Of a DNA stretch of 36,900 bases, positions 1 to 36,900 are shown one piece after another (position 1 is the first letter of the stretch; each line of letters begins with the position of its first letter). Source of the DNA: Escherichia phage SaltyDalty; sequence record PP925825.1, one strand, 5' to 3'. The position numbers and the translations under genes are program-made. The notes beneath the pieces were generated by a model. The model was not told the origin of the DNA and searched no databases. It worked only from the letters and a program-made list of their open reading frames with translations.

Positions 1-16
1 CAATTTTCTCCAGGCG

Positions 17-48
17 AAAAAAAAAGCCCATCAACGGGCTTTTTGTTG
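17..48 (-). terminator. Intrinsic-terminator-like hairpin, bidirectional
   Basis: 5-bp GC stem AGCCC/GGGCT (25-29, 36-40) with 6-nt loop, A9 run upstream and TTTTGTTG downstream; lies immediately 3' of minus-strand ORF ending at 60. Confidence 0.5.
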
Positions 49-59
49 TGATATAAACC

Positions 60-353
60 TCATGGCTTGTCTAAAAATTCTCTCAGAGCTTCCGATTTAT
101 TGCATGAATCTTTATTAATCGTCATCCCTGCCTCTTTTTGCTTTTGACAGAAATAGTAGTAATCATCGTTTGTTTTTATATAGCCCATGAATTTAAAAAA
201 AGCCTTTTTACACAATTCAGGATTTGCATGATCAGAGCAAATCGTAGACGTATAGCTTTGCAAATCATTTGGTTCTAATGGAGCCAGTGTTTGAGTTGCA
301 TTTGAAACACAACTGAAACCAAAAAATAATACAAATAAGACTAGTTTTTTCAT
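60..353 (-). CDS. Small secreted or lipoprotein-like cysteine-containing protein of unknown function (moron)
   Basis: ORF 60..410; signal-peptide-like MKKLVLFVLFFGFSCVSNA begins at the internal Met (codon at 351-353) preceded by GGTGAAGG; four Cys in the mature part; locally AT-rich compared with flanking tail genes. Confidence 0.55.
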   Translation of the reverse strand: MKKLVLFVLFFGFSCVSNATQTLAPLEPNDLQSYTSTICSDHANPELCKKAFFKFMGYIKTNDDYYYFCQKQKEAGMTINKDSCNKSEALREFLDKP

Positions 354-406
354 TGCCTTCACCAAATCATTAAAAAAAATAATCCTATTATTTTGTAGTT
401 CATTTG

Positions 407-685
407 TCACTGAGTTGCAGCTGTAAGTGCAGCCTCAAGTCCTGCAAACTGGTCCTTCGGTTCTGATTGCTCATCACCACCCCAGCGCAGGATCGCATCG
501 TCCAGCGGTACTTTTGCCCCCTGCGAGCCGTAGATGGCAGAGACGAGCTGAGCTGCCTGAATGTCACCACGAATATCGCCAACCGGACTTTGCCTGTCGT
601 ACTCAATCCACATCAGAAGCTCGCTTGCCGTCATATTCTGCCGAAGCTCTGAGAGCGTGCGCCCCATCCGGAGCGCAAGCGACAT
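407..685 (-). CDS. Tail assembly chaperone T-like segment, probably made as a G-T fusion by -1 frameshift
   Basis: T frame stays open across the 3' end of the upstream G-like ORF (VSTPGVKFL precedes the first Met); sits in the conserved position between tail tube and tape measure. Confidence 0.55.
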   Translation of the reverse strand: MSLALRMGRTLSELRQNMTASELLMWIEYDRQSPVGDIRGDIQAAQLVSAIYGSQGAKVPLDDAILRWGGDEQSEPKDQFAGLEAALTAATQ

Positions 686-33500: not shown

Positions 33501-33515
33501 TCTGAAGAAAATTAG

Positions 33516-33782
33516 TTAGATGTTTGTTTCGCTAAATGGATTTACAAAGTCAGCTTCAGCTCTGAAAAACGGACAATCACTGGACGACGTTACTGATACT
33601 GGAATAAGGGTATCTTCAACTTCATATAGCTTTGAATATTTATCGGAAACTTTGCCAGAAAGTGTCTCGCGACAAATAACCTCTCCGCCACGGTTTACTA
33701 TTACTGTCGCATTTCCGCCGATTAGGATTCCGTCATCCACGCGATGCAGGCCTGAAATAGTCAATCTCAAGTATTTTTTCAT
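33516..33782 (-). CDS. Hypothetical protein
   Basis: 88-aa AT-rich ORF between the I-like fragment and J. Confidence 0.4.
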   Translation of the reverse strand: MKKYLRLTISGLHRVDDGILIGGNATVIVNRGGEVICRETLSGKVSDKYSKLYEVEDTLIPVSVTSSSDCPFFRAEADFVNPFSETNI

Positions 33783-34048
33783 TGCTGATCCTCGACATAA
33801 ATTCCGGCGGAAATAATTGCCCCACCGATTCGCCGGCGACCATAAAGCAGCGGTACCGGGTAGCCCTGAGCAGCGGTGTTTGTCACTCCACCGAACGCGT
33901 ATGATGCGCGGTTATCTGCACTTTGCTTGCTGGCCAGTCCGGTTGGCTGAGGGGATAGCATTTGGACGATACCACCAGCCATCATACCAATACCTGCGCC
34001 GATCAATGGTGCTCCACCATATGCAGAGGTAACCACACCCACTACCAC
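33779..34048 (-). CDS. Tail assembly protein I-like, C-terminal domain only
   Basis: 89 aa; GGIVQMLSPQ ... PVPLLYGRRRIGGAIIS parallels the C-terminal region of lambda gpI; no N-terminal domain present. Confidence 0.5.
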   Translation of the reverse strand: MVVGVVTSAYGGAPLIGAGIGMMAGGIVQMLSPQPTGLASKQSADNRASYAFGGVTNTAAQGYPVPLLYGRRRIGGAIISAGIYVEDQQ

Positions 34049-34101
34049 TAATACCGCTCCGAGAATTGTTTGCAGTAATCCCGCTTTTTTACTTCCTATT
34101 A

Positions 34102-36900
34102 CTACAGGGACAATCCCGTCATCCAGTCGTCACGCTGAGCATCAGAAGCTGCGTAATATCCCTCCTGGTCGCGCAGGCGCTCTTCGAGGTAGCGCTTATT
34201 AAGTGCCAGCCCCTGCTGATAGAACGTCTCGTCGATTTCACCAGCCTGACGCTGGCGGAGAAGATCGGTATTCTTCTGCTCAAACTCCTTACGCAGATTG
34301 AACTGCTCCTGAAGTCTTTCACGGAACCTGGTTCCCTGCCCATAGCCCAGCAGTTGCGCTTCATTGGCTGCGCGGGCGCTGGCGTTACTGTCAGCAAGGT
34401 TGGCTTCGTAATTTCGCAGTTGCTCACGCAATTTAACCTGGTCAATGAGCGCAGCATTCTGCAATACCGTCTTTTTCTGGGCTTCTGTCAGAGAAGCAAG
34501 CTCGCCCTGGCTGACCTGGTATTTAACCTTCGCCAGTTCAGTATTCTGGCCTTGCAGGGCAATCTGCTCTTTTTGCTGCTTGATAAGGCGCTTATACACA
34601 TCCTCGGTTTTCTCGCCTTCGGTTTTACCACCCTTCGCCTTAGGTTTGTTGGCCTCATTATTCCGCCATTCAGCAAGACCGTTATTAATCAACTCCTGAC
34701 GGCCTGTCTGGAATTGCGGATCACTGGTTAACCCCAGGTCATCGGCTGCATAACTCAGACGCAGGCGCTCTTTGGCCTCACCCTTCAGGCGTGACAACTC
34801 AAGATCCCGACGGCTCTTTTCGAGGGCATCGGTTTGCTTTTTGTCGAGGTCGGCCTGAGGAAGTCTGAGAGGGACGTTCGCCAGCCCTTGCCGGGCCATT
34901 AATAGCTGATTTCCCAGCCCCAGCAGACGGTTAAATTCAGTATGCTGACCATTCATCATGATCATCGACTGATATACCGCATTCTGTCGCCAGGCTTGTT
35001 CGCGTATTAAATCATTGCGACGTCGCTCAATTTCTTCGAGAGCCTGCTGTATGCCGCGAGATTTATCTCGCATGTCATTTAATTTTCCCTCTTCAACAGC
35101 AAGTTGATCCGTAACGATAGCTATCGCTCTCAGTATATTTGCATCGTTCTCGCTGGTAATGCCCGGTTTTCCACGCGATGCATTCAAATCGTCGATCTGG
35201 TTCTTCAGCTCACCAACCTTTTTGGCTTGCTCATCAACCAAACGATTTTGCTCTACCAGAGCACCAACAGTTCTCCCCCTATTGTCGTCTGTTTCAGACA
35301 AAGACATGCGGGAAGTTTTTTCTCGTATTTCGTCGATTTGACTGGCGTATTCCTGGGCAGAGCGACGTGCCTGCTCCTGGTTTTGATACATCGCATACCA
35401 GGCTCCAGCACCCAACATAACTAAACCAGGAACTCCACCGATGAGACCAAGTGCACCACTCATGAGCCGAGTGCCGACGGATGTCACGCTATTGAGATTG
35501 CTTTGAGCCGAAACACGGTTTGCAAGGTTCCGGTTTAAGGAAGCCTGGGTCGCGGACAGACGCCTTTCTGCAGCAGCTTGAGCGTCAGAATTTTTTGCAG
35601 CCACCAGCCCTGCCTGTGCACGCTCAAGTGCAGTTCTGGCCCTGACTTTCTCTGTAGCAGAACCGCTGGCTAGAGCGGTAGTCAGCCTGGCCTGGGCTGC
35701 AGTGACTTTTGCTTCTGCCGCAGCAATTTTCTCTTGCTGCGCAGCCTGAACATCTGCGCTACGCGATCTCTGTACAGCTTGCTGAGCCCTATAAACCTCC
35801 GCCCTTGAGGCGGCAACGGCAGACTGTGCAGCCTTATCCTGTGCAACGGCAAGAGCAACCTCTGACTTAGCCGCAGAAATTAGCGCGCCGGTTGCGCTCG
35901 TGGCGCTAGTTACTACTCCACTGAGATACCTTGCCAGCCCAACGCCAACAAGTGCACCCGCCACTGTTGTGATCGTGGACATATTGTCTGCAACATCACT
36001 TAGTGCGCCGCTTACTGCCGAAGAGGTAAATGAATCAAGCGTTTGGGCAACTCCGTCTAGGCCACCAGATAGCGCATCGGTAGCACCTGTAGCCTGGTTG
36101 ACACCTCCAACCCATGCCATGAACGAGTTTGTGACTTTTTGCAGGGATCCGGAAACTGTTTGCGGCATGCTGGCAAACTCACCCTGTAATGAGCCCAACT
36201 GGCTCATTAATGCAGGAACAACCTTATCAATCGTAAGTTGCCCCTGGTCAGCCATGCTCTTCAGGTCTTTGCGGGCCACGCCCATTCCGGCGGCAAGTGC
36301 GCGGATAACACGATCACCTGCTTCGTTAACGGCGTTGAATTCTTCACCGCGAAGAACGCCCTGCGCCAGAGCCTGGCTGAATTGAGTGATAACAGAACTC
36401 GCTTCCTGAGTATTAGCCCCCGAAAGTTTAAGGCCGGTAGAAACAGCTTCGGTAATTTTCAGAACTTCGTCAGAGCTATACCCAAACTCACGCATTGAAG
36501 CAGCTGCGCGTGAAAAAAGGTTTGCGTTGTCTGAAAACGCGGTGCCAGTTCTTTGGCTGATTTCCATTAACTGGCGCTGAGAGGCAGCAAAATCATCAGC
36601 TGAAGATGATGCCTGCTTAAGACGGGCGTTTACTGAATTCCACTCATCAGCAATCTGCACGAGCTTACCAGTCGCAAAAGCGGCCGTAGCAGCAGCAGCG
36701 GCTCTTCCTGCCGATGCAAACCCAGCGGTCAGATCAGATAACGCCCTTTCGCTCTCTCGGGCGGCAGCGGCAGCCTGCCGACCGCCATTTTGCATGGTTC
36801 GGTAATAATCCTGCCCCATGCGTGAGGCGCGGGAAATTTCCGACTGGAATGACTGCGAGTTAGCGGAAATTTTGATTATTAACTCACGTAATGTTGCCAT
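34102..36900 (-). CDS. Tail tape measure protein
   Basis: 932 aa, alpha-helical and Ala/Gln-rich with typical tape-measure N-terminus; ATG is the last three bases of the window and gains a GGAGA RBS when the window start is appended. Confidence 0.85.
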   Translation of the reverse strand: MATLRELIIKISANSQSFQSEISRASRMGQDYYRTMQNGGRQAAAAARESERALSDLTAGFASAGRAAAAATAAFATGKLVQIADEWNSVNARLKQASSSADDFAASQRQLMEISQRTGTAFSDNANLFSRAAASMREFGYSSDEVLKITEAVSTGLKLSGANTQEASSVITQFSQALAQGVLRGEEFNAVNEAGDRVIRALAAGMGVARKDLKSMADQGQLTIDKVVPALMSQLGSLQGEFASMPQTVSGSLQKVTNSFMAWVGGVNQATGATDALSGGLDGVAQTLDSFTSSAVSGALSDVADNMSTITTVAGALVGVGLARYLSGVVTSATSATGALISAAKSEVALAVAQDKAAQSAVAASRAEVYRAQQAVQRSRSADVQAAQQEKIAAAEAKVTAAQARLTTALASGSATEKVRARTALERAQAGLVAAKNSDAQAAAERRLSATQASLNRNLANRVSAQSNLNSVTSVGTRLMSGALGLIGGVPGLVMLGAGAWYAMYQNQEQARRSAQEYASQIDEIREKTSRMSLSETDDNRGRTVGALVEQNRLVDEQAKKVGELKNQIDDLNASRGKPGITSENDANILRAIAIVTDQLAVEEGKLNDMRDKSRGIQQALEEIERRRNDLIREQAWRQNAVYQSMIMMNGQHTEFNRLLGLGNQLLMARQGLANVPLRLPQADLDKKQTDALEKSRRDLELSRLKGEAKERLRLSYAADDLGLTSDPQFQTGRQELINNGLAEWRNNEANKPKAKGGKTEGEKTEDVYKRLIKQQKEQIALQGQNTELAKVKYQVSQGELASLTEAQKKTVLQNAALIDQVKLREQLRNYEANLADSNASARAANEAQLLGYGQGTRFRERLQEQFNLRKEFEQKNTDLLRQRQAGEIDETFYQQGLALNKRYLEERLRDQEGYYAASDAQRDDWMTGLSL

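Follow-up and report, generated by a model that had tools for sequence, protein, structure and literature searches.

The record of Escherichia phage SaltyDalty probably represents one rotated unit of a circular HK97-like genome with a deletion in its tail genes

We analyzed the genome of Escherichia phage SaltyDalty (sequence record PP925825.1), the 36,900 nucleotides of which, given as one strand from 5' to 3', make up the window, that is, the whole stretch of DNA considered here. The window is best explained as one unit length of a circle, the attP form that arises when a temperate HK97-like phage with cos packaging, Enterobacter-type hosts and a pepN-pncB integration site is excised. On this view the record is rotated to the start of the tape-measure gene and carries a deletion in its tail genes. 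Judging from the sequence comparisons described below, we give this explanation a probability of about 0.85. The initial annotation had proposed that the two ends of the window join into a functional gene start and that the phage genome is circular and complete. The joining of the ends was borne out, while the word "complete" does not apply to the functional gene content, as five tail genes are lost or truncated by a deletion of ~2.7-3.1 kb.

The end-to-start join and the form of the genome

The ATG of the gene for the tape-measure protein (TMP, gene H) is the reverse complement of the CAT at 36898-36900 and thus the final codon of the record on the minus strand. The N-terminus of the predicted protein (MATLRELIIKIS) agrees with the annotated start of HK97 gp16. 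When the end and the start of the record are joined and read on the minus strand, the stop codon of a small open reading frame (ORF) is followed by a hairpin, a T run, CGCCTGGAGAAAATTG and then the ATG; the sequence over the join reads ...AAAAAGCCCGTTGATGGGCTTTTTTTTTCGCCTGGAGAAAATTGATGGCAACA, and GGAGAAAATTG stands between the terminator hairpin and the ATG. The earlier proposal that this ATG is the last codon and acquires a canonical Shine-Dalgarno (SD) motif with a 7-nt spacing on joining was confirmed by the ORF list and by the joined sequence. The SD motif alone is weak evidence for the join, because GGAG located 4-10 nt upstream has a background frequency of 1.8% of positions in this genome, low as that is. 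A 1275-nt query built over the join was covered to 100% of its length, at 96% identity, by Aeromonas phage AsXd-1, and the matching sequence is internal to that record. A 38-mer over the join was found exactly in 19 IMG/VR contigs, and alignments of IMG/VR contigs to the doubled genome crossed the join over as much as 10.9 kb (contig L003, 96.4%). The 110 nt around the join were base-for-base the same in AsXd-1 and in most of the 19 contigs, with no base gained or lost. These comparisons indicate that the join is real and not a chance SD motif, and that the first and last bases of the record are neighbours in one continuous sequence. The G/T tail assembly chaperone genes, which normally precede the tape measure, had been placed at the record start; their identity and their place at the record start stood, but they do not directly precede TMP, as a moron cassette intervenes. 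For annotation, the TMP gene and its upstream signals have to be read over the record origin.

The right and left ends of HK97, once joined, aligned unbroken to 8369-7963 at 95% identity, with HK97 base 1 at position 8262. The two HK97 ends therefore meet within the record, the cos site is internal and the record is not in virion order. This placed precisely the cos region that had been expected at about 8.2-8.4 kb, and a gene for an HNH endonuclease lies adjacent to it, as in HK97-type cos regions. Lysogens were located by means of the integrase, and both prophage ends were then found through exact look-ups of the primase/helicase and DinI proteins. On the int side, homology in five chromosomes with integrated relatives ended at 26456, where the next gene was pncB, and on the dinI side, homology in six contigs of relatives began at 26440, where the next gene was pepN. 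Two of these att loci, both in OW849320.1, were the two ends of a single prophage that was 99.9% identical to 18248-26456. The integrase has the arm-binding and catalytic domains of a lambda-type tyrosine integrase, and a common core is shared by attP, attL and attR. In SaltyDalty both phage arms flank this att core, and pepN and pncB are both absent from the genome; it is therefore in the excised attP form and not in prophage order. The same attP form was seen in the Logan contig SRR8652942_161. The flanking genes of the lysogens place the integration site between pepN and pncB.

E. coli lysogens were rejected as a route to attP, since the integrase is essentially absent in E. coli, where only ~75% matches to xis and the start of int were found; the att site was resolved from Enterobacter-type genomes. 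A tRNA integration site was also discarded, as there is no tRNA in the 36,900-nt genome or in the lysogen flanks. The integrase and a probable attP had previously been assigned to 26.4-27.95 kb. Both are present, and the core stands at the very start of that range, the remainder of which is taken up by dinI, an ISL3 relic and a UmuD-like relic. The absence of host genes from the 36,900 nt was upheld as well: the other ORFs tested all belonged to phage families (PHROG/Pfam), and neither pepN nor pncB is present.

Beyond dinI, the ~230 bp at 27553-27782 correspond to the end of an ISL3-family insertion sequence (IS) resembling ISCfr12/ISKox3, and the same stretch occurs in >1300 enterobacterial plasmids and in many E. 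coli chromosomes. A host or plasmid gene had been considered for this plasmid-shared stretch near attP and was rejected, as it is an IS end and a relic. ORF 27357-27689 fuses the ISL3 relic with a UmuD-like C-terminal fragment (region 27357-27782) and is also found in related prophages.

As the record follows neither virion order nor prophage order, it is most readily explained as a rotated circle. The absence of host DNA and the intact attP with both arms are as expected for a complete circular genome, except that the H-to-I deletion leaves some essential functions missing. The origin of the linear record would have been set at the first base of TMP and the strand shown would be the opposite one, which would account for the ribosome-binding site of TMP and the moron terminator lying at the other record end. 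In the real molecule the late operon would run continuously through terminase, head genes, tail tube, G/T, moron, tape measure, J and tail fibre. A random cut would fall on the first base of one of the ~55 start codons only ~1 time in 700, which makes a deliberate rotation more likely. Circlator sets circular contigs that lack dnaA to begin at a predicted forward-strand gene (PMC4699355), and software that turns circular contigs to a gene start would explain why the origin coincides with a start codon. The cut at the TMP start codon would then be ordinary record bookkeeping.

Deletion between the tape-measure gene and gene I

Relatives that share the TMP (up to 99.6% identical) all stopped aligning at 34109, 5 nt before the TMP stop codon. 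The TMP of SaltyDalty matches the phrog_339 profile only in part (Table 1) and residues 1-861 of the 1089 residues of HK97 H. The Pfam domains TMP_3 and Phage_HK97_TLTM were present in it, whereas Tape_meas_lam_C (PF09718), carried by the 1158-aa relatives, was absent. Intact relatives have a TMP of 1154-1158 aa as compared to 932 aa here, a loss of the C-terminal ~225 residues. On the other side of the break, the gpI remnant matched only residues 82-202 of the 202 residues of HK97 gpI and is out of frame with TMP, and tblastn with HK97 M, L and K gave no match anywhere in the genome. The lambda-like tail-tip set of H, M, L, K, I and J is hence incomplete. Three relatives with the same 1058-aa J carry upstream of it an I of 199 aa, a K of 236, an L of 252, an M of 112 and a TMP of 1158.

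The deletion junction has the sequence GACTGGATGACG-GGATTGTC-CCTGTAGTAATAGG, where TMP-intact relatives read GGACTGTCTGAGGG and I-intact relatives read GATCCGGATTGTCCCTGTAG. The microhomology at the junction is imperfect and 8 bp long, GGA(T/C)TGTC. Because the reading frames of TMP and I differ, TMP ends two codons past the junction. The missing length is ~3.06 kb relative to HK97 and ~2.7 kb, as estimated from coordinates, relative to contigs without anything between K and I, and it takes in the TMP C-terminus, M, L, K and the first ~80 codons of I. Illegitimate recombination at the 8-bp microhomology would have cut out this segment from inside TMP to inside I.

In the lambda tail pathway, the tail initiator complex no longer forms once the H C-terminus, M, L, K or I is lost, although heads are still made and filled with DNA, and lambda-type genomes with tail-gene deletions can be rescued by tails supplied in trans. 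By analogy, no tail initiator should form in SaltyDalty, which lacks M, L and K, the N-terminus of I and the C-terminus of H, and because the deletion hits essential tail-tip genes, the element is probably tail-defective and not a viable phage alone. It should still be able to excise, replicate, form heads and package from cos, and would be unable to build a tail tip on its own. A closed circle with joinable ends is thus not the same as a complete viable phage, and a tool that judges completeness by circularity would accept this genome.

Some points weigh against the rotated, tail-deleted circle. The circular topology is drawn from sequence logic and from relatives, the rotation by software is deduced from the position of the cut, and the deletion, likewise drawn from sequence logic, is unique to this sequence, so it could stem from a faulty assembly or consensus or represent a minority variant. 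If it is such an artefact, the phage would be complete and viable and the missing 3 kb would be a fault of the assembly or consensus. The junction 45-mer was indeed absent from IMG/VR, GTDB genomes and JGI metagenomes, and the other modules appear undamaged and closely resemble those of functional relatives. Yet an imperfect microhomology of 8 bp is much shorter than any k-mer overlap used by assemblers and typically marks illegitimate recombination. Moreover, 36.9 kb is still packageable for a cos phage of ~40 kb, and such a deletion can persist because it leaves the genome within this range. We consider an artefact unlikely.

Somewhat less probable again is that the record is a unit-length excerpt of head-to-tail copies, such as a double lysogen in tandem, a concatemer left by replication or an assembly whose overlapping ends were not trimmed, rather than a closed monomer circle. 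Head-to-tail repeats predict the same attP-like junction, internal cos and joinable ends, and the round length of 36,900 could reflect the cutting of an excerpt. However, the first and last bases of the record are exact neighbours in the unit, nothing being repeated or missing between them, its end exactly on a start codon fits the deliberate rotation of a closed circle, and similar phage circles have been deposited as separate replicons in Enterobacter assemblies. An integrated prophage with trimmed flanks, or host DNA within 26.4-27.95 kb, can be dismissed almost entirely: that region is gene-poor and holds relics (the ISL3 end and the UmuD-like fragment), but relatives carry the same stretch of dinI, relic and tail fibre within their prophages, and trimmed flanks are refuted by the comparison of attL, attR and attP, as lysogens have the two arms apart, adjoining pncB and pepN, and neither gene is found here.

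If the rotated circle with a natural deletion is accepted, a further step would be to regard the deletion derivative as a real persisting element, which would excise, replicate, build heads and package from cos without tail-tip genes and spread only by means of the tails of a co-resident related prophage. This idea is speculative and we hold it to be doubtful; if true, such a tail-borrowing deletion derivative would be a satellite-like parasite in the making.

Moron cassettes and genome layout

The slot between T and the tape measure is the site of the first moron (PMC3594210). SaltyDalty carries an extra gene with its own terminator in this slot, as expected of a gp15-type moron. The translated protein has a signal-peptide-like N-terminus and six Cys, matched no PHROG or Pfam family, and was found in only 6 protein clusters among 5.8 billion sequences, some of them named from Citrobacter freundii. 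A tblastn search with HK97 gp15 gave no match in the genome, and homology to gp15/YebO was not detected. The same slot holds different cargo elsewhere: E. coli prophages carry a 'zinc ribbon' gene there and HK97 carries gp15. The terminator hairpin of the moron is supported by folding and covariation, since in a second group of contigs the stem was changed on both sides yet still pairs (GCCTGCTTAGCAGG). A simple terminator scan missed this hairpin, since no T run is left over once the long A/T-extended stem has paired. The promoter scan of the moron returned one weak consensus match, GTGACA-17-TAGGAT at 410-382, with a score of 9/12.

Another ORF of 88 aa (33516-33782, minus strand), followed by a hairpin, stands between the gpI remnant and J, at a place where the closest I-intact relatives have only ~24 nt. 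Its sole match was to phrog_2571 (unknown function), and it resembles a second moron, placed where HK97 has gp22/gp23.

Positions 417-8262 aligned with HK97 bases 1-8135 at 94.5% DNA identity in reverse orientation, which puts the genes for head, packaging and tail tube on the minus strand. The HK97-like head and packaging module (small and large terminase, portal, protease and HK97-fold capsid) is present and collinear with HK97. Gene assignments were made from the ORF listing together with PHROG and Pfam scans of the predicted proteins, and the features are collected in Table 1. No phage, plasmid or E. coli record reached >=80% coverage of any query, and exact look-ups with the protein sequences of the truncated TMP, J and the tail fibre gave no match. 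SaltyDalty belongs to the HK97 group as an ordinary mosaic phage (Enterobacter-type) without an identical record in the collections searched, and the biology of its genome falls entirely within well-known lambdoid and HK97 biology.

Table 1. Coordinates of features in the SaltyDalty record
Feature	Position	Strand	Basis or remark
SD motif GGAG of TMP	8-11	minus	7-nt spacer to ATG after joining; kept in 19 IMG/VR contigs and AsXd-1
Intrinsic terminator hairpin of moron	17-44	minus	AAAAAGCCC-GTTGAT-GGGCTTTTT, then T run; predicted by folding
Moron ORF, 97 aa	60-353	minus	HK97 gp15 slot, between T and TMP
G/T tail assembly chaperone pair	G 694-1077, T segment 407-685 (span 407-1077)	minus	96% DNA identity to HK97 gp13/gp14 and relatives
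Major tail protein	1086-1529	minus	147 aa
Large terminase	6207-7721	minus	94-95% DNA identity to HK97
Small terminase	7728-8213	minus	94-95% DNA identity to HK97
cos site	8253-8272		HK97 right and left ends meet between 8263 and 8262
HNH endonuclease	8563-8916	minus	phrog_2323
Two glycosyltransferase-family genes	8901-9494 and 10024-11481	minus	phrog_854, phrog_1579
Spanins	12680-13100		PHROG/Pfam scans
Endolysin	13097-13639		PHROG/Pfam scans
Holin	13909-14304		PHROG/Pfam scans
Q-like antiterminator	14952-15767		PHROG/Pfam scans
Primase/helicase	15771-17642		PHROG/Pfam scans
O-like initiator	17750-18733		PHROG/Pfam scans
cro	18878-19096		PHROG/Pfam scans
cI	19190-19918		PHROG/Pfam scans
Early-left operon		plus	ends with the excisionase-like gene, then the integrase (25115-26407)
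Excisionase-like gene	24816-25070	plus	DUF1233
Tyrosine integrase, 430 aa	25115-26407	plus	Pfam Arm-DNA-bind_2 (PF12167), Phage_integrase (PF00589); phrog_1
attP core, 17 bp, TTGCTACATTTGTATAA	26440-26456		common to both prophage ends and this genome
dinI	26762-27028		PHROG/Pfam scans
Tail fibre	27954-29123		PHROG/Pfam scans
Three small membrane or Cor-like genes	29133-30288		PHROG/Pfam scans
Central tail fibre J, 1058 aa	30285-33461	minus	PHROG and Pfam matches; apparently intact
Gene I remnant	33779-34114	minus	phrog_32 positions 109-201/203; C-terminal ~111 codons only
Deletion junction	34105-34116	minus	TMP codon ~930 joined to gpI codon ~82; three-way comparison
Tape-measure gene (TMP), 932 aa, truncated	34102-36900	minus	ORF list; phrog_339 positions 3-892/1123

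The two glycosyltransferase-family genes are placed between the HNH/cos region and the lysis genes, with a plus-strand ORF (9656-9895) between them. These genes are common to ENT39118, ECP1 and Fostie, and they may be surface-modification morons. A full-length Rfam match to the STnc100 small RNA was found at 14534-14737 on the minus strand, with 59 bits against a gathering score of 47. It was the sole Rfam match, lies between the genes for the Q-like antiterminator and the holin, and is unrelated to the question of the end join.

Comparison with known systems

HK97 (NC_002167; Hendrixvirinae, Byrnievirus) resembles SaltyDalty in its head, packaging and tail-tube genes and in cos, at 94-95% DNA identity. 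It likewise has an HNH gene beside cos and a G/T pair followed by the gp15 moron with its terminator and, 12 nt further on, the start of the tape-measure gene. In HK97, G/T is annotated as a -1 frameshift product, and HK97 J shows 84% protein identity over the first 917 residues. The integrase and att differ, as HK97 uses the lambda core and SaltyDalty the pepN-pncB site, and the replication module of HK97 is O/P whereas that of SaltyDalty is a primase/helicase. The moron cargo also differs, gp15 being unmatched in SaltyDalty. The major tail protein has 234 aa in HK97 as compared to 147 aa in SaltyDalty, where the C-terminal extension is missing; AsXd-1 has the same short form, and the short protein is therefore not a defect. 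HK97 keeps M, L and K, while SaltyDalty lacks them and has truncated H and I.

AsXd-1 (MH178096, 39,014 bp) has the same moron, terminator, SD motif and TMP start as SaltyDalty and is identical over the 110 nt at the join. Its identity is 93-94% from the tape measure to cos and 92% in the integrase region. It differs in having an intact TMP of 1154 aa, with M, L, K, I and a longer J after it, and its record is written from cos, so the SaltyDalty join is internal there. AsXd-1 is recorded as an Aeromonas salmonicida phage, a surprising label for a sequence that is 93-96% identical to enterobacterial HK97-like modules.

The prophage between pepN and pncB in OW849320.1 (GCA_905233045.2) shares the att core with SaltyDalty and its high identity over 18248-26456. 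It differs in being integrated, in its J and fibre genes, in its intact M, L, K and I, and in a private reverse-transcriptase gene (RVT_1, 495 aa; locus L040, 8439-9926) beside dinI, at the equivalent of 26746. The Logan contig SRR8652942_161 is 99.95-100% identical to 18363-27862 and has the same att core; it carries a private insertion of an IS256-family transposase near cI (locus L044, 1650-2858), at the equivalent of ~19967-19977. A 2.35-kb contig of a metagenome-assembled genome labelled 'Chitinophaga' (NZ_DATCVJ010000162.1) contains the end of this integrase and the sequence on the attP side, at 84-95% identity, which suggests contamination of the bin.

Enterobacter 'plasmid' records of 37-43 kb (NZ_CP083847.1, NZ_CP104840.1, NZ_CP074176.1 and NZ_AP025933.1) are HK97-like phage circles closed by assemblers. 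They share tail and tape-measure segments with SaltyDalty at 84-90% identity, and they differ in covering <=35% of a 10.5-kb query and in keeping L, K and I where these are annotated. The lambda-type tail-gene deletion mutants offer the nearest analogy to the defect itself, as they have likewise lost tail-initiator genes, whereas the deletion in SaltyDalty would be a natural one, found in a database sequence.

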